The translations under genes and the position numbers were made by a program. Below, in pieces: positions 1-48,759 of a stretch of 48,759 nucleotides of DNA. Each line of letters opens with the position of its first letter. The first letter of the stretch is position 1. The notes beneath the pieces were generated by a model. It was not told where the DNA came from and made no database searches. It was given only the letters and a program-made list of their open reading frames with translations. This DNA is from a virus, in IMG/VR virus record IMGVR_UViG_3300029805_000004; one strand, written 5' to 3'.

Positions 1-119
1 AATACAGCCGGGGTGAACTCAAGTGAAGATTGATTTGCCATTATTTATACCTCAGTAATTTTGACGTTTTGTGATACCAGACCGTAGCTGTCTTTCAGCT
101 TCATGCCAGTCTCACGACT
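1..119. repeat. Terminal direct repeat copy 1 (identical to 48641-48759); most likely a circular-assembly overlap
   Basis: Bases 1-119 (aatacagccggggtgaactc...catgccagtctcacgact) recur exactly at 48641-48759. The junction lies inside minus-strand coding sequence. Confidence 0.95.
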
Positions 120-1174: not shown

Positions 1175-1528
1175 TTAAAATTTACGTTTAGGGATTTTCA
1201 TAACGATTTCTGACACCTTCATTTCGCTGGCAGTATCAACAAGCTCACCACACGACTCTTCAAACTCTTGCATGGTATCGGCACCGCGAAAAACAAACTC
1301 CAAATTAATCTCGTCAGCATTAGGGTATGCAGTTCTGATGTAATCAATATGAGAGGCAAGGTTTGCTTTAGTCAGCGGTGACACTTCATGGTCAATGCCA
1401 TCATTCAAGCGCGTGTTTTTGCGGTCATATATATAAAGCAATGCTTCACAGCGAATGAAGGGGTAAACCTTCTTAGCTTCAGCGTAACCTTCTTTGCGAA
1501 GTTCTTTCAGTTGTTGAAGTAATGTCAT
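1175..1528 (-). CDS. hypothetical early protein (117 aa), first gene of the leftward arm
   Basis: ATG at 1528 preceded by GGAGattgaa. Lies downstream of the leftward promoter-like element. No family recognised. Confidence 0.6.
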   Translation of the reverse strand: MTLLQQLKELRKEGYAEAKKVYPFIRCEALLYIYDRKNTRLNDGIDHEVSPLTKANLASHIDYIRTAYPNADEINLEFVFRGADTMQEFEESCGELVDTASEMKVSEIVMKIPKRKF

Positions 1529-1566
1529 TTCAATCTCCGGGGTGGTGGTTTAATTAACTTAATGAC

Positions 1567-1595
1567 ACTATGCGCCTCCTGTCCGACACTGTCAA
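1567..1595 (-). promoter_or_regulatory. leftward sigma70-like promoter (TTGACA-17 nt-CATAGT)
   Basis: On the minus strand, TTGACA is the complement of 1590-1595 and CATAGT the complement of 1567-1572, with a 17-nt spacer. The spacer contains the operator GTGTCGGACAG. Confidence 0.5.
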
Positions 1596-1630
1596 CTTTA
1601 TCCGTTATTTACTTTAACGCTGTCGGACAG
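1579..1630. promoter_or_regulatory. operator pair: 10-bp inverted repeat CTGTCCGACA (1579-1588) / TGTCGGACAG (1621-1630)
   Basis: Read directly. The same TGTC-n-GACA / GACACTGTC motif recurs at 4532-4550, 8001-8019 and 47253-47305. Confidence 0.6.
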
Positions 1631-1659
1631 TTGACACACTTCTATAGCGGTAGTAGGGT
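1631..1659 (+). promoter_or_regulatory. rightward sigma70-like promoter (TTGACA-17 nt-TAGGGT)
   Basis: TTGACA at 1631-1636, a 17-nt spacer, then TAGGGT at 1654-1659. The operator copy at 1621-1630 abuts the -35. Confidence 0.45.
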
Positions 1660-1770
1660 TGTTGCTTGCTTTGGCTAGGTGATGAATAGCTGTCATCACT
1701 GAACGCTTCTTTCCGGGGAAGCTGCCACGGCCCCACTTACCGGGTGATATCGACGGAGGATATTATTAAA

Positions 1771-4236
1771 ATGCATCCAATAATAAGAATTAATAACGAC
1801 GAATTTCTACGCGGGATTTTCCGCGAAAATTATCTAACCACCCATGTCAACAGCTTTGCTTTTGATCCAAATAATATTCCCAATGACATGCGTGGTATTG
1901 CATGGGCTGGTGGCTATTATGAGAACACGCCGCTACGACCGGGAGAGAATCAATTTTTCTGCGTATCGCAGTTCATGATTGACTTCACCACGGGTCGAGC
2001 AGTCAGGCGTAAGGCCAACTTCCTTGCTACCTATCTAATCGTCGCTGATGACGTGGAAGAGAAGCTACCACTTGAGCAGGTCCAACGCTTGCCCAAGCCG
2101 AGCTACATACTCAGGACATCCAACTACTCATATCAATGGGGCTGGATTCTGGAAGTCCCGGAAACGAACATGGACCGGGTCAACAACTTACTGGACCAAC
2201 TGATTGCGAATGGTTTAGCACCTGACGGTACAGATCCGGGCATGAAAGGTGTCACCCGGTTGATACGCACACCTGATGGCTTCAACACCAAGGTCAAACG
2301 AATTGAAGAGAACGGTGGCGCGGCGCCACAGTGTGAAGTCACGCAGTGGAACCCGGAACTACGCTACACCATGGAACAGTTAGCCGAGCCCTTCAATGTT
2401 GAGCTCGACGCACCACGGTCTGACGGTCGAGTTGACGGTGCAGCCGATGTGCCTGACCACCCGGTGCTGCAACATCTAGCTATCAAATCCACCTTGAGTG
2501 CAGGCCGATACGACATCACCTGTCCATGGGTCGATACGCATACTGATAAAGACGACAGCGGTTCAGCCGTATTCACTAATGAAGATGGGACCGTTGGCTT
2601 CCAATGTCACCATGGTCACTGCCAAGAAAAGACAGCGGGTGACGTGCTCAACTTCCTGAACGTGACGGTCCCCGGCTTCTCGACGGTGTATTCAAACTGG
2701 AAGATGAACCGGGCTTTAGACACGTTGCCTGATATCCCAACGGCACCGCCATCAATGCAAGTACCGATACTCAGCTTCATGGGGGTGGCCCCGGTAAAGG
2801 AGGATGATAGCGGCATGGACGCGGCGATAGTAAAGCTGTCTCACATGGTCCCCGGTGATGAGCAGCGGGTATTCGCTGAAACATTACTGCACACCATCAA
2901 TGGTCTGAGCAATGAAATGTTGAAGATCACTTACAATGAAGATGTGCGACTCTCAATGGACTGGACCAAGTCTGAACTGACTAAAATTATCAAGGCCCTG
3001 CATCGCAGTCACGCGGTAGCGCATGGGGCCAACGATACAATGTGGCTACTCGACAACATCGTGCTGATGACTGAAGGTGCGGGTGGCTTCTATAATATCC
3101 ATCGCAACGTATTCCAGTCCGCGTTCTCACTCACTGCAACCTACGGTCACATGGTGCTAGGTGATGAGACACCCGCCAGCGTGATAGCCAACAATCCCAA
3201 CAAGCGAACAGCGGACCGTATAGGGTGGCACCCGACAGCGGAACAGACCTTCGACTACGATGGTCGGACCTACCTGAATACCTACTCACCACCACGCATG
3301 ATACCAATCCCCGGTGACGTCAGTCAGTGGCTACAACTCATGGACTTCCTATATAAAGAGCACGCACATCTACTCATTCAACACATGGCATTTACTTTGC
3401 AACGGCCCGACGTGAAAATTCGCTGGCAACCGTTGATTGGTGGTATCCCACGTAGCGGCAAGACAATGAGCATTAAACCATTGATAAAGATATTAGCCGG
3501 TAGTGCAGCCATGGTCAGTAATGATGACTTTGAAGCAGGATGGGGTGATGTCTTTAGTGAGAAGAAAGCGATTGCCTTTGAAGAAGTATGGCAACCAGAT
3601 AAGCGGCAGTTCAACAGGCTTAAAACGAAGTTGGCTAATGATGACATTGAAACGCTGAACATTAAGGGCCAAGGCTTGAAAACGCAGCGCAATCTATACA
3701 GTATCTATATGTTCACCAACCATCTTGATGCGCTTCAGTTTGATGATAATGAAGATAAGCTGCTGGTCATACGGTGCAATGAGCGCATGAGTGTGGAGTT
3801 CTACCGTGAGCTTGGCAACAAGATAGACTTTGATGCGAATTACATTGCCCACATCTATCATTACCTGCTGAATGTGGATCTCAGTACCTTTGATCATGGA
3901 CGTTTGCCAGTGCGTACACAGGCCATGTATGACATGGTAAAAGAGAGTCGTCCTGAGTATGAAACTTTAGCACTGGAATGGCTTGAAGATGAAGTGTTTA
4001 ATCCAGCCTGTTTTCGCATGGCAGATATGATGTCAAAACTACGAGATTGTACGACAGTCAGAAGCATGAAAAAGGTGGGGCAAATGTTGCATCGGGAAGG
4101 TTATATTTCTCATAAGGCCCAAAGAAAGGGCCATCCGGTAGTCAGGTTCTGGTCAAATGATGCTGCCTGCATTGATATGAAGCCGGTTGATTTGCACACT
4201 TACTACCACAAGATGCTCACAGCATCAATCCCATAA
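1771..4236 (+). CDS. DNA primase/helicase (AEP-type primase N-domain, Cys/His zinc module, SF3/D5-like NTPase)
   Basis: GGAGGA at 1755-1760, 10 nt before ATG 1771; the track start GTG 1744 is less likely. Primase-like LIVADDVE and TRLIRTPDGFNTK motifs. Zinc module CPWVDTHT...FQCHHGHC. Walker A is GGIPRSGKT. Confidence 0.8.
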   Translation: MHPIIRINNDEFLRGIFRENYLTTHVNSFAFDPNNIPNDMRGIAWAGGYYENTPLRPGENQFFCVSQFMIDFTTGRAVRRKANFLATYLIVADDVEEKLPLEQVQRLPKPSYILRTSNYSYQWGWILEVPETNMDRVNNLLDQLIANGLAPDGTDPGMKGVTRLIRTPDGFNTKVKRIEENGGAAPQCEVTQWNPELRYTMEQLAEPFNVELDAPRSDGRVDGAADVPDHPVLQHLAIKSTLSAGRYDITCPWVDTHTDKDDSGSAVFTNEDGTVGFQCHHGHCQEKTAGDVLNFLNVTVPGFSTVYSNWKMNRALDTLPDIPTAPPSMQVPILSFMGVAPVKEDDSGMDAAIVKLSHMVPGDEQRVFAETLLHTINGLSNEMLKITYNEDVRLSMDWTKSELTKIIKALHRSHAVAHGANDTMWLLDNIVLMTEGAGGFYNIHRNVFQSAFSLTATYGHMVLGDETPASVIANNPNKRTADRIGWHPTAEQTFDYDGRTYLNTYSPPRMIPIPGDVSQWLQLMDFLYKEHAHLLIQHMAFTLQRPDVKIRWQPLIGGIPRSGKTMSIKPLIKILAGSAAMVSNDDFEAGWGDVFSEKKAIAFEEVWQPDKRQFNRLKTKLANDDIETLNIKGQGLKTQRNLYSIYMFTNHLDALQFDDNEDKLLVIRCNERMSVEFYRELGNKIDFDANYIAHIYHYLLNVDLSTFDHGRLPVRTQAMYDMVKESRPEYETLALEWLEDEVFNPACFRMADMMSKLRDCTTVRSMKKVGQMLHREGYISHKAQRKGHPVVRFWSNDAACIDMKPVDLHTYYHKMLTASIP

Positions 4237-4303
4237 GCGTTAATGCTACTCTCAACACCAGTCGTGCTGGGAGTAGTAATGCTGTGAGCGTTGATACCCA
4301 CTT

Positions 4304-4523
4304 CAGTGACTACTTTTGCTATCTGACTACCTTTACTGACTACCTAAAAACTCTAATGAAAACAATAGTATATATATACTTTTAATAAAGGTAGTCAGGT
4401 AGTCACTACTACTAATACTTATACTTAACACTGTTATAAACGTTAATGTAAATTCTCAACGATTTACGTTTTCATCCTCTTACGGTATTAGTAGTCACAA
4501 ACTACTGACTACCGACTACCTTT
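4304..4523. other. putative replication origin: iteron array (cTGACTACCttt) in both orientations around an AT-rich core
   Basis: TGACTAC at 4307, 4324, 4337 and 4506, plus CGACTAC at 4513. The complement GTAGTCA is at 4391, 4399 and 4491. The core 4344-4390 is about 83% A+T and includes tatatatata. The region is non-coding. Confidence 0.55.
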
Positions 4524-4529
4524 GATTTG

Positions 4530-4559
4530 TTGACACTGTCGGACACTGTCTGCTAGTAT
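4530..4559 (+). promoter_or_regulatory. sigma70-like promoter with embedded operator (TTGACA-18 nt-TAGTAT)
   Basis: TTGACA at 4530-4535 and TAGTAT at 4554-4559. The spacer is CTGTCGGACACTGTCTGC, which carries two overlapping GACACTGTC copies (4532-4540 and 4542-4550). Confidence 0.55.
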
Positions 4560-4602
4560 CTTGGATGGGGCAATGTTGCCCGGTGTAAATGGAGTTTGAA
4601 AC

Positions 4603-4737
4603 ATGAGTAAATTCGACCATAAGAAAGTGCCTGAAGGAATGTTCTTTTGCCAAGGGTGTAGACAGCAACGACCTGTCGGTGATCGCACTGGTAAATACGG
4701 TAAGTCATGCAGCAAGTGCAACGGTGAATCATCATGA
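4603..4737 (+). CDS. 44-aa zinc-ribbon mini-protein (CxxC...CxxC)
   Basis: Below the ORF-track cutoff. GGAG lies 8 nt upstream of ATG 4603. Sequence MSKFDHKKVPEGMFFCQGCRQQRPVGDRTGKYGKSCSKCNGESS. ATGA overlap with the next gene. Confidence 0.55.
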   Translation: MSKFDHKKVPEGMFFCQGCRQQRPVGDRTGKYGKSCSKCNGESS

Positions 4738-4952
4738 GATTATCCATCGGTTTAGCAGTGGTTTTTCTTACCGGGATGTTTTTCAGCATCATGGCGTGGT
4801 ATTTGGATTTGCCCACGGTTGGACTTAATGACCGGCACGAATGTCAATGGGTGGAAGAAGCACCTGCGTTTGAACGACGTGACTGCCCAAAGGAATTACC
4901 AGACAGCTATCATCCAGTGTATGTGCACTATGATGACAGCAAAGGGGAATAA
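4734..4952 (+). CDS. small membrane protein (72 aa, N-terminal TM helix)
   Basis: ATGA-coupled start. Hydrophobic segment LSIGLAVVFLTGMFFSIMAWYL. Confidence 0.55.
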   Translation: MRLSIGLAVVFLTGMFFSIMAWYLDLPTVGLNDRHECQWVEEAPAFERRDCPKELPDSYHPVYVHYDDSKGE

Positions 4953-6694: not shown

Positions 6695-7997
6695 GCTGAA
6701 GCCCCTGTTCGCCGCCATACGCTACAAAATCATGTATGGGGGCCGAGGGGGTGGTAAGTCTCATTCAGTGGCCCAAGCACTGCTTATAACCGGCACAACC
6801 AAGCCAATGCGTATACTTTGTGCACGTGAAGTTCAGAAGTCCATCAAGCAATCGGTCCACCAGCTACTATGTGATTACATCGTCAAGCTGGAACTGACCA
6901 ACTTTTATGAAATCTTAGACAATGAAATACGTGGGGCCAACGGCACAACCTTCAACTTTGCTGGCCTTGCAGGTAGCACTGTAGACAGTATCAAGTCGTT
7001 TGAAGGTGCTGATGTCTGCTGGGTGGAAGAAGGTCAGACTGTCACCAAGCGAAGCTGGGACGTCCTGATACCCACCATTCGCGCACCGGGCAGTGAAATA
7101 TGGGTGACGTTCAATCCCCACACTGACCTTGATAACACTTACGTTCGCTTCGTGCTGCAACCACCACCAGACAGCGTGGTGATTAAGATCAACTACCCGG
7201 ATAACCCATGGTTCAGTGCAGAGCTTGAAGCGGAACGGCTGCACTGTTTAGCGACAGATCCAGACAACTACGCTAATATTTGGGAAGGTGAATGTCTGAG
7301 TGCCAGCGAAATGCAATTTATAACTACTGATTCAGTCCGTGAGTCCATGTCACGTCAAGCACGTTATCTTGGTGATGATCCACTGATTTGCGGTATCGAC
7401 TTGGCCCGTGGTGGTAATGATGACTGCTTCATCACCTTCAGACGCGGTAAGGATGCACGCAGCGAGAAAATCTACAAGATACCCGGCAAGAAATCACGTG
7501 ACTCAATGGTAGTCGTATCGTTGGTGACTAAAATATTGCAGGACCACCAGCCTGACCAAGTCAATGTAGATGAAGGAAGCATGGGTGGTCCTATCGTTGA
7601 TAGATTGAACCAGCTTGGTTGGAACGTCATGGGTGTCAGCTTTGGCAGTCGAGCTACCGATGACAAGCATTACAGCAACAAGGTCGCTGAAATGTGGGAT
7701 AGGATGCGCGTATGGATTGTCAACGGTGGTGCATTGCCTAACAATCCACGCTTGCTGACAGAATTAACATGCCGTGAGTTCAGCCACGATAATAAAGACA
7801 GACTGGTACTTGAGAGCAAGAAAGCGATGAAGTCAGGTCCAGATCCTAAGCCATCACCTGATTGGGCTGACTCAATCTGTCTGACGTTTGCCATTGATGT
7901 AGCACCGATTGAGCGTAAGGACCGTGATGATATTCATGGTATGCGTTTGCGCAGCACGCATGACGTTGACCCACTGGACGCAATGACCTTCAATTAA
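6669..7997 (+). CDS. terL: terminase large subunit (PBSX/Terminase_3-like)
   Basis: N-terminal RYKIMYGGRGGGKSHSVAQALL (Walker A) and VCWVEEGQ (Walker B). The GTG 6669 start is uncertain, but it must lie upstream of the RYK motif. Confidence 0.85.
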   Translation: MAHLQIPSKLKPLFAAIRYKIMYGGRGGGKSHSVAQALLITGTTKPMRILCAREVQKSIKQSVHQLLCDYIVKLELTNFYEILDNEIRGANGTTFNFAGLAGSTVDSIKSFEGADVCWVEEGQTVTKRSWDVLIPTIRAPGSEIWVTFNPHTDLDNTYVRFVLQPPPDSVVIKINYPDNPWFSAELEAERLHCLATDPDNYANIWEGECLSASEMQFITTDSVRESMSRQARYLGDDPLICGIDLARGGNDDCFITFRRGKDARSEKIYKIPGKKSRDSMVVVSLVTKILQDHQPDQVNVDEGSMGGPIVDRLNQLGWNVMGVSFGSRATDDKHYSNKVAEMWDRMRVWIVNGGALPNNPRLLTELTCREFSHDNKDRLVLESKKAMKSGPDPKPSPDWADSICLTFAIDVAPIERKDRDDIHGMRLRSTHDVDPLDAMTFN

Positions 7998-8000
7998 CGC

Positions 8001-8019
8001 TGTCCGACACTGTCCGACA
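8001..8019. promoter_or_regulatory. tandem operator TGTCCGACA-C-TGTCCGACA
   Basis: Read directly, immediately after the terL stop. The flanking TTAACGCTGTC is shared with the copy at 1614-1624. Confidence 0.6.
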
Positions 8020-8845: not shown

Positions 8846-10525
8846 ATGGCACGCGAAAAGAAGTCATACGACAAACGATTGGGAACCCTACGTGCAGAGC
8901 GTTCAGGGTTCATCGACTATTGGCGTGAGTTATCTGATATTCACCTTGCCCACCGGGGACGTTTCTTAACGTCTGACCGCAACAAGGGCCATAAACGTAA
9001 CACCAAACAATACAACAACACTTCACGTCTAGCAGTCAGAACGATTGCGTCAGGCATGATGGCAGGTATCACATCACCAGCACGACCATGGTTCAGATTG
9101 CGGACCAGTGATCCAGTGCTCAATGAGAGTGGCGCGGTGAAGGAATGGTTGCACGATGTTGAAGGAATGATGCGTGAAGTATTCAACTCATCCAACCTAT
9201 ACAACTCATTGCACGTGACCTACGCTGAACTGGCTGTGTTTGGTACTGCCAGCATGGGTGTATTCAGTGACTATGAGAATGTGATTTGGTGCAAACCTTA
9301 CACCGTGGGCAGCTATTCGCTGGGCATGAACGGTAAGAATATTGTTGACACTCAATACCGGGAATATGAATTGACCGTGGCCCAAATGGTTGATGAGTTT
9401 GGCCTTGAGTATTGCAGCAACCAAGTCAAGAACCATTGGAAGAAAGGCAGCACTGAAACATGGATCAAAGTGGTCCACGTCATTGAACCTAATGATGACC
9501 GGGATGCACTGAATCCCATGGCAAAACATAAGCGGTATCGCAGCGTCTACTATGAAGCAGCGCATACCATTGAGGACCAACATCAATTCTTGCGTGAGTC
9601 AGGCTTTGATGAGTTCCCAATACTGACACCACGCTGGGATGTAACGGGTGAAGATATCTATGGCACTGACTGTCCGGGGATGGTCGCGCTGGGTGATACC
9701 AAGACCTTACAACTGCAAGAGCGTCGTAAGTACCAAGCGATAGATAAAGTGGTTAATCCACCTGTTCAAGCACCATCATCACTACGCAACAAGATATCAG
9801 GCGGTAACTTGGTATCGGGTGAAATAGTGTTTGTGGATGACACGGCGAACGGTGGTGTTAAATCATTGTATGACTATCGACCAGACTTAGCTGCGATGCA
9901 GGCGTCTATCGACATTAACGAAGAGAGGATCAAGCGTTCGTTCTATGAAGATTTGTTCTTGATGCTGTCAAACAGTGACCGTCGTCAAATCACCGCACGT
10001 GAGATATCAGAGCGTCATGAAGAGAAGCTATTGATGCTCGGTCCTGTATTGGAACGTCTGCACACTGAGCTACTAGATCCACTCATCGACAGAACATTTA
10101 ACATCATGCAGCAAGCAGGAATACTGCCTGATCCACCTGAAGAATTGAAAGACAGTGTCATCAACGTCGAATATGTATCGGTACTGGCCCAAGCTCAAAT
10201 GATGGTCGGCATTGGTGCCTTGGAACGTACTGCACAGTTTGCTGGCAGCTTGGTCGAAATTTGGCCTGAAGCACGTCATAAGTTTGATGCACTGCAAGCG
10301 ATGGATGATTATTCAGAAGCCATGGGTGTCAGTCCTCACGTTGTCCGTAGTGATGATGAAGTGGCAGGCATTATGGATGCCGAGAAAGCAGCGGCCCAAG
10401 AACAGAAACAAGCAGAACAAGCAGCTATGGCAACTGACATGGCAGGCCAAGCCGCCAGCATGGATACCAGCGGTCAGAACGTATTGACTGATGTCATGCG
10501 TATGGCAGGGATACAACCAGAATGA
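8846..10525 (+). CDS. portal protein (T7 gp8 head-tail connector family)
   Basis: RSFYEDLFLMLSNSDRRQITAREISERHEEKLLMLGPVLERLHTELLDPLI aligns by eye with T7 gp8 RLSFAFMLNSAVQRTGERVTAEEIRYVASELEDTLGGVYSILSQELQLPLV. ATG 8846 is preferred over GTG 8837. Confidence 0.85.
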   Translation: MAREKKSYDKRLGTLRAERSGFIDYWRELSDIHLAHRGRFLTSDRNKGHKRNTKQYNNTSRLAVRTIASGMMAGITSPARPWFRLRTSDPVLNESGAVKEWLHDVEGMMREVFNSSNLYNSLHVTYAELAVFGTASMGVFSDYENVIWCKPYTVGSYSLGMNGKNIVDTQYREYELTVAQMVDEFGLEYCSNQVKNHWKKGSTETWIKVVHVIEPNDDRDALNPMAKHKRYRSVYYEAAHTIEDQHQFLRESGFDEFPILTPRWDVTGEDIYGTDCPGMVALGDTKTLQLQERRKYQAIDKVVNPPVQAPSSLRNKISGGNLVSGEIVFVDDTANGGVKSLYDYRPDLAAMQASIDINEERIKRSFYEDLFLMLSNSDRRQITAREISERHEEKLLMLGPVLERLHTELLDPLIDRTFNIMQQAGILPDPPEELKDSVINVEYVSVLAQAQMMVGIGALERTAQFAGSLVEIWPEARHKFDALQAMDDYSEAMGVSPHVVRSDDEVAGIMDAEKAAAQEQKQAEQAAMATDMAGQAASMDTSGQNVLTDVMRMAGIQPE

Positions 10526-31612: not shown

Positions 31613-34600
31613 ATGACTGTCAACACGACTAATATTGTTTCAGGCCCGTATACCGGCAACGGTGTGACCACTCAATTCAGTTATGGCTTCAGGGTTGACG
31701 ATAAAACGCAACTCGTTGTCTATGAAACCGATGACTTAGGTGTTGAAAGCGTGTTGGTCGTTGACGTTGACTACACGGTTAATAACGTGGGCGATGATGC
31801 TGGTGGCACGATTGACCGTATCGCAGGCGCGTTGCCTACCGACTACACGTGGTATATCCGTTCTAATTATCTGCATCTTCAGCTAACCGCGTTCGCCTCA
31901 CAGGGTGGATTCTTTCCAGACGTTCATGAAGCTGCGATGGATTTGCTGACGTTCTTATCCCAACAACAAGAGGACCGTATTGCACGCGCAATGCGATTCA
32001 ACGATTCATATTCAGGCGGTGCAGATCCAGAACTACCTGTACCTGAAGCCGACAAAGTATTGGTCTGGTCCTCGGATGCCTTAAACATCATCAACGGACC
32101 GAGTGAAGGTACGTTCATGGGTTGGGCTGACGCAGCAATCGCAGCAGCAGCAGCGGCGGTGATCAGTGCCGACGCAGCAGCCGCCAGCGCAGTAGCAGCA
32201 GACTTGAGTAAGATTGCCGCCGCGTTGAGTGAGACTAACGCAGGTGACGCAGCCAATGCAGCAATAGCAGCAGCAGCAGCAGCGGCGATAGATAAAGCAG
32301 CAGCAGCCGTCAGCGCAGCAGCAGCATTAGTCAGTCAAGGTGCTGCGTCAGACAGTGAGGCAGCAGCAGCAGCCAGTGCAGCAGCAGCCGCGATAGACCA
32401 GCTTGCAGCAGCAGCCAGTGCAGCAGCAGCATTAGTCAGTGAAGGTCTAGCAGAATATTGGGCCGGGGAAGCACAGACCGCTGCTGGTGCAAATGAAAAG
32501 ATTGCCGCACGTAACGCAGTACAAAACCAAGACGCAGTAAGCCAAGGTTTAGCACAACGGTCTGGTATGAGTTCAACTATCTACACAGGTAACGGTACAA
32601 GCCAAAGTATTATTACTGGCGTTGATATGTCCAGCGGCGATTTTGGTGGCTTTAACTGGATTAAAAATAGGGATGCTGCAATATCTCACGCCTTGACTGA
32701 TTCAGTCAGGGGCGACTTTAGGTTAGAGAGTGACACAACCGCCGCAGAGTCAGCCACTACAGCGGTAGCGCTAACGTCAACAGGGTTTGACTTGGTCACT
32801 GCAAGCAACAGATACAACCAAAATAGTGTTGATTATGTAGCTTGGTCATTCCAAACCAATAAGAAAGCGTCACGTAATATAGCGATATACCCTGAACAAT
32901 TTGATAATGCGGTATGGGCAAAATCGGCGGGCATAGTGGTTACACCTAACGCACAAATCGCACCTAATGGCTTTATGACAGCAGATGAATTGGCACATGA
33001 CGGAGTGAACAATCGCGCCGTAGTGCAATCACCCACAACCTTAAAGGCTAACACCACCTATACTTTTTCAATCTATTTAAAAATAATCTCCGGTAGTTTT
33101 ACCGAGAATAGTAAATGTCAATTAGCAATTTATGGCAGTGGCCTTGTAGCTACATCATCGGTGATTATTGGTGACGCACTTAACGGCGATTCTGAATGGC
33201 AGAGATTTGAAGCAACAGCGACAACAAACGGCGCACCGTCAGTAGCTAATTTCAGCATAAGGTGTGATGAGTTAGTCACCCTTGCTGAGTGGGGCGCACA
33301 GATTGAAGAAGGTAGCGCGGCAACCGATTATCAAAACGCAGAAACCAATCACGGCAAGCCTTACGAGTGTCACTACAATACTGAAATGGGCTTTAGTATT
33401 GTCGGCTATGAAGGTGATGAAGTCGCAGGCCATGAGATACCGCATCATCTAGGTGGCGAACCTGAATTAACAATCTATAAAAATAGAGAGAGCGTTTATT
33501 CTTGGATAGTAAAAGGGGCAATGTTTCAGGACGATGAGTTCTTATTCCTGAACGCCACTAATGCGCTGGCTACAGGTTATGTCAGTTCGCAAGATGATAC
33601 GACTTTAACCGTGGACGATACGGAGGAGTTAAATGAAGCAGGCATAAATATCATCGCCTACAACTTCCGTTCTATCGCGGGCGTATCAAAAATAGGCAAG
33701 TACATCGGCACAGCGGCAACGGGTAATTATGTCGATTGCGGCTTTATTCCGCGCTTTGTGATGTTGAAAACGCTTGATTCTGCTGGTGGATGGGCGATGT
33801 ATGACACTGCTAGGGGTATAGACCAAGTAGTAAATGCAGAGAGCAGTGACGCTGAAACTACTAACGTCAAGATTGAATTGACCGAGAATGGTTTTGTGCT
33901 TATTGGTACGTCATACAATGCACTTGACCAACAATATTTATTCATAACTTTTGCTGAAACTGACAGCGATGCCAACAAGTCATGGACGGATTACGACTAC
34001 GCCGTTGATAAAGACGTTTTAGTTATTGAGCAAGATACCTTGGTGAGCTTTGCTAATGGCTTCTCAGAAACAGGCCAAGTCGATACGCAATTCAATGTCG
34101 GCAGTGGCGTGACCTACAGCGAGAAAGGCGATGAGCTGGTAACTAATGGCACGTTTGATACTGATACCGATTGGAATAAAGGCGCAGGCTGGTCTATTGG
34201 TTCTGGTGTTGCAACCTCGGATGGTGCTAATGGAAACCAAGCGCTCAATCAAATTGTCAACCTTGTTGAAGGCGATACTTACCAAGTCTCTTTTGAGGTT
34301 ACTGCCTATACTGCTGGTTTATTACAACTAGAGTTGATTGCTACGACAACCGTAGCCGCAATAAATGTCAATGCTACTGGCGTGTATACCGTTACTTATG
34401 TTGCCGAAGCTGACACCTCTATGATAGTTGTTTTTAGAAGCAATGCTAGCTCTCCTTTTGCTGGCGGTGTTGATAACGTATCGGTCAAAGTAGTAGTCAG
34501 CACACCTAAGAAACTCTACCTGTTCATGGACAAGACCGGCTTGCTTGGTTCAACTGAGTTCAGACCTTTGGTTGGCCTGTCACGTGACGAGGCCGATTTT

Positions 34601-37481: not shown

Positions 37482-37820
37482 ATGGCTTCACCTGAAGAGT
37501 GCCTTACGTTTAAGCAGCAGCTTAATGATCTGACAACTCATATAGAAAAAAGGTACACCGCTGTGCATGAACACATACGTGAATTGCGTGAAGATTTCAG
37601 TGACCATCTTGAGATTCAGGAAGATCGTCATCGTGAGAACATGGCGTCACGTGCTCATAACACCAAGGCCATTGAGACTTTGACGGACAACACGAAGGGT
37701 ATGGTCGATGCGTGGAAAACGATTGCCAACTTGGTTAAGTTTGTTGTGGTTATCGCAACCGTGTTGGGTTCAACAGCCGCTATCCATACCGCGCTGCAAC
37801 ACTTCAATCTGATTACATGA
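37482..37820 (+). CDS. coiled-coil protein with C-terminal TM anchor (112 aa), last gene of the rightward arm
   Basis: AAGGA lies 6 nt before ATG 37482; the track start 37377 overlaps the endolysin. C-terminal LVKFVVVIATVLGSTAAIHTAL. Confidence 0.55.
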   Translation: MASPEECLTFKQQLNDLTTHIEKRYTAVHEHIRELREDFSDHLEIQEDRHRENMASRAHNTKAIETLTDNTKGMVDAWKTIANLVKFVVVIATVLGSTAAIHTALQHFNLIT

Positions 37821-46622: not shown

Positions 46623-47029
46623 TACAATGCAGCCATTCTTTCATTGAAAGTAGCAAATTGTGCTTGCGGTAACGCTGCAAAACCATTGACACCAAACTCA
46701 GTCAGCAAGTTGCGCACTGCTGCACCGCTATCACCTAACCGGGTTGCGGCTGCTATGGCTGCTGCGTTCAAAGTCTCAGCCGTGATGGTCGTGGCTGCTG
46801 GTGGTGTTGGTGCTACGGCTGCTGCTGCTACGGGTGCTGCTGCTGCAACTGCTGGTGCTGGCACGCTGGTCAACACGGGTGCCGCTGCAACTGGTGCCGC
46901 TGCTGCTACCACTGGTGTTTCAACCTGACCGACTGTTTCAACAGACAGACCTGCTACCAACGCTGTTAATAAGGCCACCATTTGTTCATTAGTGGCTGCG
47001 ATTTTTTCTAAATTTTGTTCAATTGACAT
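46622..47029 (-). CDS. hypothetical protein with central Ala/Pro/Val-rich linker (135 aa)
   Basis: TAATG-coupled to the nuclease gene. Two small helical ends are joined by PVVAAAAPVAAAPVLTSVPAPAVAAAAPVAAAAVAPTPPAA. Confidence 0.55.
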   Translation of the reverse strand: MSIEQNLEKIAATNEQMVALLTALVAGLSVETVGQVETPVVAAAAPVAAAPVLTSVPAPAVAAAAPVAAAAVAPTPPAATTITAETLNAAAIAAATRLGDSGAAVRNLLTEFGVNGFAALPQAQFATFNERMAAL

Positions 47030-47225
47030 CGTATAATTCTCCAGATGTTTTCATAGTTTTAAGTTGTTCAGCAGTCGGGGTAATTTTCAATCTACCTTCG
47101 CTGGCGGCAACCATCATTTCACGGAATAGGTCATTGTGATCCTTCCCGTAAATCTCTTTGGACTTCTCCTTGAAAGTTTCAAGTTCGTCCTCATCCACAC
47201 GTATGTGAAATCGCATACTTCCCAT
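47019..47225 (-). CDS. ribbon-helix-helix (CopG/Arc/MobC-like) DNA-binding protein, 68 aa
   Basis: RFHIRVDEDELETFKEKSKEIYGKDHNDLFREMM is a beta-strand plus two helices, the RHH pattern. AGGAGG RBS. The operator cluster lies directly upstream. Confidence 0.6.
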   Translation of the reverse strand: MGSMRFHIRVDEDELETFKEKSKEIYGKDHNDLFREMMVAASEGRLKITPTAEQLKTMKTSGELYDVN

Positions 47226-47252: not shown

Positions 47253-47305
47253 GACAGTGTACCCTATCTGTCGGACACTGTGTTACTTAATTGTGACACT
47301 GTCAC
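47253..47305. promoter_or_regulatory. operator cluster: GACAGTGT (47253-60), TGTCGGACACTGTG (47269-82), palindrome GTGACACTGTCAC (47293-305)
   Basis: Read directly in the 81-nt gap between two minus-strand genes. The minus strand also carries a TAGGGT hexamer like the -10 at 1654-1659. Confidence 0.6.
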
Positions 47306-48502: not shown

Positions 48503-48681
48503 TACTCACCACCTTTGAACACGTTTTCAAGGTGCTCAATTAAATACTTAGCATAGCCAACGACTAGCTCAACATCGTCAAACATGAATGTTTCATCACC
48601 ACGCTCGACGCACTTTTTATACTCAACTTTCAACCGGGCCAATACAGCCGGGGTGAACTCAAGTGAAGATTGATTTGCCAT
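48502..48681 (-). CDS. hypothetical early protein (59 aa) spanning the repeat boundary
   Basis: Below the track cutoff. Sequence MANQSSLEFTPAVLARLKVEYKKCVERGDETFMFDDVELVVGYAKYLIEHLENVFKGGE. The same ATG appears at 39-41, which shows the two ends are contiguous. Confidence 0.5.
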   Translation of the reverse strand: MANQSSLEFTPAVLARLKVEYKKCVERGDETFMFDDVELVVGYAKYLIEHLENVFKGGE

Positions 48682-48759
48682 TATTTATACCTCAGTAATT
48701 TTGACGTTTTGTGATACCAGACCGTAGCTGTCTTTCAGCTTCATGCCAGTCTCACGACT
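48641..48759. repeat. Terminal direct repeat copy 2 (identical to 1-119)
   Basis: Exact 119-bp identity with the window start. Confidence 0.95.

Follow-up and report, generated by a model that had tools for sequence, protein, structure and literature searches.

A candidate replication origin directly downstream of the primase-helicase gene in an uncultured tailed phage

Repeat-based origins and their initiators

In iteron plasmids such as pSC101, RK2, R6K and F, initiation depends on a dimeric winged-helix protein, the dedicated Rep, and on the host proteins DnaA and DnaB-DnaC. The origin repeats of P4 are octamers (TGTTCACC) in both orientations, and P4 replication also requires a second, distant repeat region known as crr. 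The P4 alpha protein contains a primase, an SF3 helicase and a C-terminal winged helix in one polypeptide and binds the origin repeats (summarised in PMC4234260). The primase of P4 is of the bacterial Toprim type (PMC4234260). In pRN1, an essential cis element is found at most 166 bp downstream of the gene encoding ORF904 and adopts a stem-loop fold of about 100 nt; the authors state that it has no iteron structure (PMC4234260).

The Rep proteins of SaPIs are self-loading initiators that read the iterons through a C-terminal winged-helix domain (PMC9371898). The SaPI origin contains 6-12 iterons directly downstream of rep, with an A+T-rich centre and at least two opposed iterons on each side, and no host initiator is required (PMC9371898).

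The DNA analysed here (the window) is the whole 48,759-nucleotide stretch of the IMG/VR virus record IMGVR_UViG_3300029805_000004. The region at about 4300-4520 of the window is probably the replication origin of this phage, and the primase-helicase encoded upstream of it is probably the self-loading initiator.

The primase-helicase gene, the iteron array and the adjacent promoter

The features of the locus, with their coordinates in the window, are the following:

1771-4236, plus strand: primase-helicase gene, 821 aa (start codon ATG at 1771, as in database protein P0001)
4018-4155, plus strand: coding region of the predicted C-terminal winged helix, modelled with two helices (helix-turn-helix) plus a beta hairpin
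4137-4145, minus strand: extra iteron copy GGTAGTCAG inside the primase-helicase gene, in the P-V-V-R codons of the wing strand
4246-4276, plus strand: imperfect 13-bp hairpin just past the stop codon (inverted repeats; also seen in the single-stranded DNA fold)
4307-4344, plus strand: left iteron set, three direct copies facing the core (TGACTAC at 4307; TGACTACC at 4324 and 4337)
4345-4389, no strand: first A+T-rich stretch, about 83% A+T, with TATATATATA (composition and stability)
4390-4405, minus strand: central tandem iteron pair GGTAGTCAGGTAGTCA with 8-bp spacing, the most conserved element
4406-4490, no strand: second A+T-rich stretch, 72% A+T, 85 bp, between the inner and the promoter-proximal iterons
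4491-4520, both orientations: right iteron set (GTAGTCA at 4491, minus; tandem TGACTACC at 4506 and CGACTACC at 4513, plus)
4530-4559, plus strand: sigma-70-type rightward promoter of the small-gene, terminase and structural operon
4603-4737, plus strand: first gene after the gap, 44 aa with two CxxC pairs, preceded by GGAG

From the N-terminus onward, the primase-helicase comprises an AEP primase, a zinc-binding motif, a D5-type SF3 helicase and, at the C-terminus, a predicted winged helix. Its identification as an AEP primase/SF3 helicase beside the gap, made earlier from the sequence, is upheld by the family, profile and structure searches. The Pfam matches were DUF5906 and RepB_primase (AEP-type, E = 8e-4), both below the curated cut-off, and the PHROGs matches were DNA primase families. 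A profile search against the PDB retrieved the C-terminal region of the NrS-1 replicase (6k9c, E = 9e-29). The structure model of the helicase and C-terminal region (pLDDT 92) matched NrS-1 (E = 4e-19, TM 0.63) and the SaPI5 primase-helicase 7ola (E = 2e-10, TM up to 0.60, identity 12-14%) in Foldseek, and also PriRep1 on double-stranded DNA (7pds), poxvirus D5/E5 and ASFV PrimPol, the matches reaching down to 1e-7. No SaPI chain was retrieved by phmmer or by profile search of the PDB, and the likeness is at the level of the fold only; the protein is an analogue or a distant relative of SaPI Rep, not a member of its sequence family. No P4 alpha chain was found in the PDB by protein or family-profile search or among the top fold matches, and the protein gave no match to a Toprim domain.

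The last 152 residues were modelled with AlphaFold2 at pLDDT 90. Foldseek matches of the winged helix in the PDB were weak (E 0.018 or worse throughout); the top ranks were mostly winged-helix DNA binders (PadR, HxlR/MarR, DnaD-N and Orc1/Cdc6), with some unrelated folds at lower ranks. The wing tip, Q-R-K, is encoded at about 4120-4128. Genes for a DNA polymerase, a single-strand-binding protein, an exonuclease and an SNF2 helicase are also present in the phage, the first three on the leftward arm.

The gap after the gene (4237-4602, 366 bp) had been described as the largest of the genome, and it is indeed the largest between plausible genes on an approximate longest-ORF map, which is not a gene-finder annotation. 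No open reading frame of at least 40 residues is present within 4237-4508. All eight repeat copies listed in the preliminary description (five direct and three inverted) were re-located: TGACTAC at 4307, 4324, 4337 and 4506 and CGACTAC at 4513 on the plus strand, and the complement of TGACTAC, GTAGTCA, at 4391, 4399 and 4491. Together with the intragenic copy, the array comprises nine motif copies in 384 bp in both orientations. The membership of GGTAGTCAG is uncertain; this copy may be a chance occurrence because L003 and L004 encode the same residues by other codons, without the motif. The fuller repeat unit is about 11 bp long (TGACTACCTTT / AAAGGTAGTCA), and two tandem iteron pairs are present, GGTAGTCAGGTAGTCAC with 8-bp spacing and CTGACTACCGACTACC with 7-bp spacing.

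TGACTAC occurs 17 times in the whole window against 5.9 expected, a count reached in none of 100 shuffles. Eight of the 17 are inside 4138-4512, whereas about 0.05 would be expected per span of that size (Poisson P of about 1e-15, by our own arithmetic from the motif count); the nine elsewhere are near chance level. The word GACTACC occurs 12 times against 3.6 expected, with seven of these within 4137-4520. Genome-wide, the array is the strongest cluster of short words save a coding CAG repeat near 32.1 kb.

From left to right, the locus contains three plus copies, the A+T-rich core, two minus copies, the second A+T-rich stretch, and one minus and two plus copies. The core, placed earlier at 4344-4390, has the composition then reported for it (83% A+T) and includes the TATATATATA run. 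The first A+T-rich stretch is the centre of a 17-nt inverted repeat with 94% match (4319-4335 / 4386-4402), and in the second stretch a further motif, ATAAACGTTAATG, occurs once (4436-4448), with a weak promoter-like site also present at 4425. The genome-wide minimum of duplex stability (48,640 positions) is inside the array at window sizes of 40, 60, 100, 150 and 200 bp. At 40 bp the least stable segment genome-wide is 4354-4393, and at 100 bp it is 4354-4453, which covers parts of both A+T-rich stretches. Seven relatives were examined over their fetched loci, and in six of them the stability minimum at 60 and at 100 bp likewise falls within the gap after the primase-helicase gene.

In the single-stranded DNA fold, the inverted iterons form a 100-nt hairpin (-15.9 kcal/mol, z -4.6), and Rfam on 3900-4900 returned only sub-threshold microRNA-precursor matches, which reflect the hairpin. 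The smaller hairpin at 4246-4276 is bracketed by a perfect 11-bp inverted repeat (4215-4225 / 4279-4289) and is not a canonical terminator because it has no T-run. No terminator was called in the gap by prediction; L003 has a canonical one at the equivalent position. No DnaA box (TTATCCACA, up to two mismatches), IHF consensus or GATC was detected in 4100-4650, which fits a self-sufficient initiator.

Cumulative GC skew, proposed in the preliminary description as a check on the origin, was computed and proved uninformative, the site not being singled out. The lowest value is reached at 3408, within a flat part of the curve (1250-4500), and the highest at 37768, where genes converge. Per gene, the skew follows the coding strand, and the skew at third codon positions (-0.03 +/- 0.11) is patternless; the skew therefore cannot decide the position of the origin.

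The operator-containing promoter reported at 4530-4559 is real and is composed of the hexamers TTGACA and TAGTAT, 18 bp apart, the second of them preceded by TG. Overlapping it are two GACACTGTC operators in tandem (4532-4540 and 4542-4550). This palindrome, GACAnTGTC, recurs at other promoters of the genome, and L003 and L004 also have an operator-like tandem repeat across the promoter. The right iteron set ends 9 bp before the first hexamer, while the last iteron is found 10 bp before TTGACA in L003 (GTGGTTACCTGACTACC) and 11 bp before TTGACG in L004 (GGTTACC), so that a distance of 9-11 bp is conserved in three lineages.

This conserved distance would also be explained if the array served to regulate the rightward late promoter. 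In that case a transcription factor, possibly the primase-helicase itself, would bind the repeats and switch the operon from 4603, and the A+T-rich DNA would serve as an upstream promoter element or a bending region. The gap does lie at the boundary between an early gene, for replication, and the operon for terminase and structural proteins. However, the promoter already has its own operator, and the GGTAGTC motif is present at no other promoter. Copies are also found at distances above 200 bp upstream and surround the least stable duplex genome-wide, an unusual arrangement for an operator, and L130 and L165 keep their arrays though the next gene is convergent and no such promoter is present. 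A purely regulatory function is accordingly considered improbable.

A little less improbable, though still doubtful, is a double function in which the origin also acts as a replication-coupled late-gene switch. The terminase and structural operon could be gated by the primase-helicase as it occupies or fires the origin; a separate repressor that binds GACAnTGTC would act on the same promoter, and the second conserved motif of the gap, (A/G)CGTTAAT, would mark a further factor. The coupling of transcription to the origin that the preliminary description attributed to the promoter is conjecture, since the promoter fires away from the array. The 44-aa CxxC protein encoded next has homologues in L003 and L004; none was found in L055 or L130, which makes it an unlikely iteron binder.

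Conservation of the array across lineages

Nine lineages of the primase-helicase subfamily were compared (the window, L003/L118, L004, L055/L152, L130, L163, L164, L165 and L167). A repeat array with an A+T-rich core is present directly after the gene in all nine. The arrays are built from five kinds of motif (GGTAGTCA, GGTAACCA, CTGGTGGG/CCGGTGG, GGGGTTGCA and GTTTCAA), and the tandem iterons are often spaced by 8-9 bp; CTGGTGGG is the motif of L164 and GTTTCAA that of L167. The central pair of the window corresponds to GGTAGTCAGGTAACCAC in L003, GGTAGTCAGGTAGAC in L055 and GGTACCCAGGTAACCACC in L163. In L130, the contig of which carries only a C-terminal fragment of the primase-helicase, with 39% identity, the 17-mer at the central pair is identical and the same three-copy left set is found with spacings of 16 and 13 bp.

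All five lineages with the GGTAGTC motif share the wing tip Q-(R/K)-K, despite identities down to 39%; in the lineages with other motifs it is QCK, EHQ, QVH or NRK. Within these nine lineages only, the sequences suggest that the wing tip co-varies with the iteron motif. Melting, domain make-up and the nine-lineage comparison thus agree with the earlier proposal of iterons in both orientations around an unwinding element beside the gene for the likely initiator.

The genes downstream of the array differ among the lineages and include a Terminase_3 operon, Terminase_6N and convergent genes (L130 and L165). In the fetched contig parts, the window and L055 have only the primase-helicase and the large terminase in common, and between their genes at the position of the small terminase no alignment was obtained, with E allowed up to 100. 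Across these changes of downstream neighbours the array remains linked to the primase-helicase gene, which argues against a packaging site or a late-promoter operator.

A packaging site (pac or cos-type) for the small terminase subunit would nevertheless be compatible with the position of the gap: in the window, L003 and L004 the small terminase gene follows it at a distance of 1.0-1.7 kb, and in L055 the large terminase gene follows after about 1 kb. Moreover, in the unrelated lambda-like prophage L150, a Nu1-like small terminase gene is directly preceded by five GGTAGTC repeats, so such arrays can serve packaging. In the window, however, the small terminase gene lies 1.65 kb from the array, with five or six small genes in between, and the GGTAGTCAGGTAG core is kept in L055, in which the gene at the small-terminase position is unlike that of the window. 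Arrays are also found beside the Terminase_6N of L163 and the convergent genes of L130 and L165, and the motif tracks the wing of the primase-helicase. Packaging is therefore regarded as a very unlikely function of the array.

Repeats in both orientations around A+T-rich DNA also mark centromere-like sites and the arms of attP, and the array might be a cis site of this other type, for partition, recombination or attachment. No integrase, ParA or ParB was found among the scanned proteins, about a dozen small open reading frames being without a family assignment, and the array is linked to the primase-helicase gene in every one of the nine lineages. Such a site appears marginally less probable even than a packaging site.

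The position of the array is not universal. No array follows the primase-helicase in L005 (42% identical) or L006 (48%), in which genes follow directly, or in Vibrio phages with a different C-terminal type, and a comparable word cluster is present nowhere in the whole genome of Vibrio phage 1.021.A.

Near-identical phages were found neither by DNA search nor by a single-protein scan of IMG/VR. The 14-mer AAGGTAGTCAGGTA gave mostly chance matches in IMG/VR, from which L055 and L118 were retained by a primase-homology filter; L152 was added by a later scan. Scanning of a genome collection gave chance matches only, and a literature search for the motif returned only primers and unrelated sequences. 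Among plasmids, one partial match was obtained, and the array thus does not belong to a plasmid replicon family. L077 proved to be a coding repeat and was set aside. L150 and a second high-G+C prophage with GGTAGTC repeats, L146, are unrelated to the window genes, and the shared motif was treated as coincidence.

Proposed mechanism and comparison with known systems

In the proposed origin function, the winged helix of the C-terminal domain, at about residues 735-821, would bind the iterons of 8-11 bp (AAAGGTAGTCA). The opposed iterons would set helicase rings on either side of the A+T-rich stretches at 4345-4389 and 4406-4490, and the rings would melt both. Primers would be laid by the N-terminal AEP domain, after which the phage DNA polymerase, single-strand-binding protein and exonuclease would take over.

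An origin and initiator pair is thereby proposed for uncultured, probably marine podoviruses with head genes like those of the Bordetella phage BPP-1, the replication of which was previously unstudied. If the array is an origin, the nine lineages, with five motifs and matching wing tips, constitute a natural specificity series for an SF3 self-loading helicase. In practical terms, a fragment of roughly 230 bp and one gene could act as a minimal replicon or as a phage-resistance decoy.

Of the solved structures, the replicase of the deep-sea vent phage NrS-1, a primase-polymerase/helicase (6k9c, 6k9e and 6lrb), comes closest to the helicase and C-terminal region, and it likewise belongs to a tailed phage. 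No NrS-1 origin is described in the literature searched, and this phage therefore provides no precedent for the DNA element. In Bordetella phage BIP-1, no array was seen in the stretch after the rep gene, which contains a G+C-rich hairpin and a convergent gene.

[quoted passage not shown] The locus resembles the iteron plasmids in having initiator repeats and an A+T-rich unwinding element near the initiator gene. It differs from them in that the gap contains no DnaA box or IHF site and the proposed initiator has its own helicase and primase.

The layout had been called classic for plasmid and P4-type origins. Its elements (iterons, A+T-rich core and initiator gene) stand, whereas the closest precedent is the SaPI origin; P4 alpha, with a Toprim primase where that of the window is an AEP, counts only as an analogue. 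Furthermore, the above-chance copies are all in one locus (4137-4520), unlike the ori and crr regions of P4.

Like the SaPIs, the phage has an SF3 helicase as its proposed initiator, fused to a primase as in SaPI5 and with a predicted C-terminal winged helix. Eight iterons are present in 4307-4520, the first of them 71 bp past the stop codon, with one more in the 3' end of the gene, and the A+T-rich centre is flanked by at least two iterons per side in opposite directions. Unlike a SaPI, which is a satellite, the element is a 48.6-kb tailed phage with its own polymerase; its iterons are of 8-11 bp, whereas those of SaPIs are of 5-6 bp, and a promoter with its own operator abuts the array. The comparison suggests that the SaPI-type arrangement, in which the initiator gene is followed directly by the origin, is also found in autonomous tailed phages of Gram-negative hosts. 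The SaPI origin is the closest known system and P4 a looser analogue; the locus would be a new, well-supported and unsurprising example of a known design, and for that reason it leaves the understanding of origins unchanged.

Genome layout and the iteron array

The first 119 bp of the window (1-119) recur as an exact direct repeat at its end (48641-48759), so the window most likely represents a 48,640-bp phage genome assembled as a circle, and the repeat is probably assembly overlap. The repeat is uninformative on the physical ends of the genome. By gene order, the gap 4237-4602 has the single early replication gene that runs rightward on one side and the operon of packaging and structural genes on the other.

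Main gene blocks of the window
1771 to about 37.1 kb, + strand: rightward genes; primase-helicase first, then small genes, small and large terminases; after the terminases a T7-type portal, BPP-1-like head genes and two giant proteins (2538 and 1464 residues)
4603-4737: gene of a 44-aa protein with two CxxC pairs, first gene past the promoter
about 1528 across the junction to about 37.0 kb, - strand: leftward genes, including DUF2800 exonuclease, Enc34-type single-strand-binding protein, DNA polymerase, Dam methylase and SNF2 helicase

The 44-aa protein, a possible zinc ribbon from its sequence, has homologues in the related contigs L003 and L004; none was found in the relative L055. The 1464-residue protein contains carbohydrate-binding and DUF7483 domains, and in its gene CAG/CTG trinucleotides are densely repeated (about 20 copies in 300 bp, window about 32141-32440), presumably encoding a low-complexity linker.

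Each repeat copy listed for the gap in the preliminary description was found again at its position, as was the promoter. The complete iteron unit is about 11 bp (TGACTACCTTT / AAAGGTAGTCA).

Elements of the array region
4137-4145: ninth iteron copy, within the primase-helicase gene
4307, 4324 and 4337, + strand: three left iterons
between left iterons and central pair: first A+T-rich stretch, 45 bp, about 83% A+T
4390-4406, - strand: central tandem iteron pair GGTAGTCAGGTAGTCAC
after the central pair: second A+T-rich stretch, 85 bp, 72% A+T
4491, - strand: single right iteron
4506-4520, + strand: right tandem iteron pair
4530-4559: promoter (TTGACA, 18 bp, TAGTAT; TG precedes the second hexamer), 9 bp beyond the last iteron

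The window contains 17 copies of the core TGACTAC where 5.9 are expected, and no shuffle out of 100 gave as many; eight of the 17 copies lie inside 4138-4512. By chance a span of this length should have only about 0.05 copies, which puts the Poisson probability of the clustering near 1e-15; outside the array the motif is at chance level across the rest of the genome. GACTACC occurs 12 times (3.6 expected), with seven copies inside 4137-4520. In an unbiased screen of 7- and 8-mers for clustering, the array ranked behind only the coding CAG repeat genome-wide. The ninth copy may be fortuitous, because L003 and L004 have the same P-V-V-R residues at this site and encode them with different codons.

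Nearest-neighbour stacking energies placed the least stable duplex of the genome within the array at windows of 40, 60, 100, 150 and 200 bp, the least stable 100-bp window being 4354-4453. In six of the seven relatives tested, the duplex of the entire fetched locus was likewise weakest in the gap, at window sizes of 60 and 100 bp. As the iterons are inverted repeats, the single-stranded DNA folds into a 100-nt hairpin (-15.9 kcal/mol, z -4.6). The gap contains no DnaA box (up to two mismatches allowed), IHF consensus or GATC, and an Rfam search of the array region gave no meaningful match. The cumulative GC skew, proposed earlier as a check, was computed and proved uninformative, since its minimum (3408) falls on a flat stretch and the skew is a coding-strand property that is not seen at third codon positions.

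The primase-helicase and its relatives

The primase-helicase (1771-4236) has 821 residues; Pfam matches it weakly to RepB_primase (AEP type) and DUF5906, and PHROGs of phage primases match as well. With the family profile, a match to the phage NrS-1 replicase was obtained over its helicase region (E 9e-29). A structural model of residues about 430-830 (pLDDT 92) also gave NrS-1 as best match (E 4e-19, TM 0.63), and it matched the primase-helicase of the staphylococcal pathogenicity island SaPI5 (7ola; E 2e-10, TM up to 0.60 over 428 columns); dsDNA-bound PriRep1, poxvirus D5/E5 and ASFV PrimPol were further top matches. A separate model of the C-terminal 152 residues (pLDDT 90) has two helices and a beta hairpin as its last elements. 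For this model Foldseek ranks mostly winged-helix DNA-binding domains at the top and some unrelated folds further down, all with weak scores (best E 0.018).

No near-identical phage was found in GenBank. Protein database and pattern scans yielded eight more lineages with the window-type helicase and C-terminal region. All eight have a non-coding gap directly 3' of the gene, with short repeats in both orientations and an A+T-rich stretch between them.

Main repeats in related contigs (identity to the window protein)
L003 / L118 (62%): TGGCTACC, TGGTTACC, GGTAGTCAGGTAACCAC, GTGGTTACCTGACTACC
L004 (61%): GGTAGTCAC, GTGACTAC, GGTAGTCTCTGACTAC
L055 / L152 (39%): GTGGCTACC, GGTAGTCAGGTAGAC
L130 (39%, C-terminal fragment only): three direct CTGACTAC-type copies, spacing 16 and 13 bp, then a 17-mer identical to the window's GGTAGTCAGGTAGTCAC, then TATATATA
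L163 (36%): GGTAACC, including GGTACCCAGGTAACCACC
L164 (33%): CTGGTGGG / CCCACCAG, and CCGGTGG
L165 (39%): GGGGTTGCA / TGCAACCCC, flanking a (TTA)n stretch
L167 (47% over the primase domain, 28% over helicase and C-terminal part): about 12 GTTTCA-type copies (counted from sequence), three in tandem with 8-bp spacing adjoining TATAAATATAATATATA

Members of the wider protein family do not all have the array, and none was seen 3' of the genes in L005 (42% identical) and L006 (48%). In an alignment of the C-terminal domain, the first residues of the wing loop follow the DNA motif, in nine lineages, too few for a formal test. The five lineages that carry GGTAGTC iterons all have Q-(R/K)-K, even L055 and L130, which are 39% identical to the window protein, whereas QCK, EHQ, QVH and NRK accompany GGTAACC, CTGGTGGG, GGGGTTGCA and GTTTCA, respectively. 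The array-less L005 and L006 have QMR and AKT, though both are closer overall. Such a pattern would be expected if the wing contacts the iterons.

The genes downstream of the array vary. In the window, L003 and L004 the promoter leads into small genes and a Terminase_3 operon; L055 has small genes and a large terminase, and a comparable promoter was not seen there. L163 is a Terminase_6N phage with cI/Cro-like genes upstream, the neighbour in L164 is a small subunit of Terminase_2 type, and in L130 and L165 the neighbouring genes are convergent. Of all the window proteins tested against L055, just two have homologues there, the primase-helicase and the large terminase, and the L055 gene at the small-terminase position shows no similarity to the window small terminase. 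The primase-helicase is thus the sole gene that constantly accompanies the array. This weighs against the array being a packaging site or an operator of the late promoter.

GGTAGTC repeats also occur in two unrelated high-G+C prophage contigs, L150 (five same-strand copies, 2575-2640) and L146 (three, about 7838-7870). The L150 repeats lie immediately 5' of a Nu1-like small terminase gene, which is followed by a lambda-type large terminase and a portal. These repeats are likely cosB-type terminase sites that share the motif by chance.

Accessory motifs and the probable operator palindrome

A second motif, ATAA(G/A)CGTTAATG, is present in the array gap at 4233-4245 and 4436-4448, and in L004 (4076-4190) and L003 (about 4285). 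The related AACGTTAA has one copy in the whole window and at least five in L004, in the part of the gap that separates the stop codon from the iterons. The primase-helicase stop codon and a hairpin of 13 bp lie between the arms of a perfect inverted repeat of 11 bp (GCTCACAGCAT / ATGCTGTGAGC, window 4215-4289); in L130 (reverse strand) the entire array is enclosed by TCTCACAGG ... CCTGTGAGA. Two 32-bp direct repeats (TAACGTGTAAATTTTTAACAGGTTTTG...) in L164 (5776-5847), between the stop codon and the CTGGTGGG iterons, are a further lineage-specific element within the putative origin region.

The palindrome GACAnTGTC (exact form GACACTGTC) occupies several promoter-like and intergenic sites.

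Copies of GACAnTGTC and the adjoining 68-aa reading frame
1585-1593: overlaps the first hexamer of the leftward promoter, divergent region
4532-4550: two tandem copies over the 4530 promoter
8006-8014: between the large terminase gene and the next gene
10151-10159: within the portal gene
47253-47303: three copies, 21-bp spacing, upstream of the 68-aa gene
47019-47225, - strand: 68-aa reading frame (MGSMRFHIRVDEDELETFKEKSK...), directly downstream of the three copies

The palindrome is probably the operator of one phage regulator. The argument lies in placement and not in number, because the 20 copies with one mismatch (12.8 expected) were reached in 3 of 100 shuffles. The 68-aa product, which has no Pfam match and resembles ribbon-helix-helix repressors by eye, is a candidate for the regulator.

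The putative origin and known replication systems

The origin proposed in the preliminary description is well supported, as array statistics, melting, protein fold and relatives agree; the array region is quite probably a replication origin with the adjacent primase-helicase as initiator. We infer a mechanism in which winged-helix domains of the primase-helicase subunits would bind the iterons, whose opposed orientations would set helicase rings at both flanks of the A+T-rich DNA. The helicase would melt this DNA, the AEP domain would prime synthesis, and the phage polymerase, single-strand-binding protein and exonuclease would carry replication on, probably in both directions. The promoter points away from the array, and its first hexamer lies 9, 10 and 11 bp from the last iteron in the window, L003 and L004, respectively; this spacing hints at a cross-talk, still conjectural, between origin occupancy and late transcription.

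The layout was earlier likened to plasmid and P4-type origins, with which it shares iterons, an A+T core and an adjacent gene for the likely initiator, but the SaPI origin matches better. Classical iteron plasmids depend on DnaA, whereas DnaA sites are missing from the gap. Phage P4 alpha, a functional analogue, also uses a second, distant repeat region, which has no counterpart in the window. The P4 primase is of the Toprim type (PMC4234260), whereas that of the window is of the AEP type. The plasmid pRN1 has an essential cis element downstream of its AEP-SF3-winged-helix gene, but this element is a stem-loop without iterons (PMC4234260). BIP-1 was proposed as similar to pRN1 (PMC4234260); only a G+C-rich hairpin and a convergent gene follow its rep gene.

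The SaPI Rep proteins are SF3 helicases, fused to a primase in SaPI5, that recognise iterons by a C-terminal winged-helix domain and do not require a loader (PMC9371898). Their origins have 6-12 iterons immediately 3' of the rep reading frame and an A+T-rich centre with at least two iterons per side in opposite directions (PMC9371898). These features of origin layout are all found in the window. The fold similarity between SaPI Rep and the window protein is significant, whereas homology at the sequence level is undetectable; the two are therefore treated as the same kind of system, the window protein lying outside the SaPI Rep sequence family.
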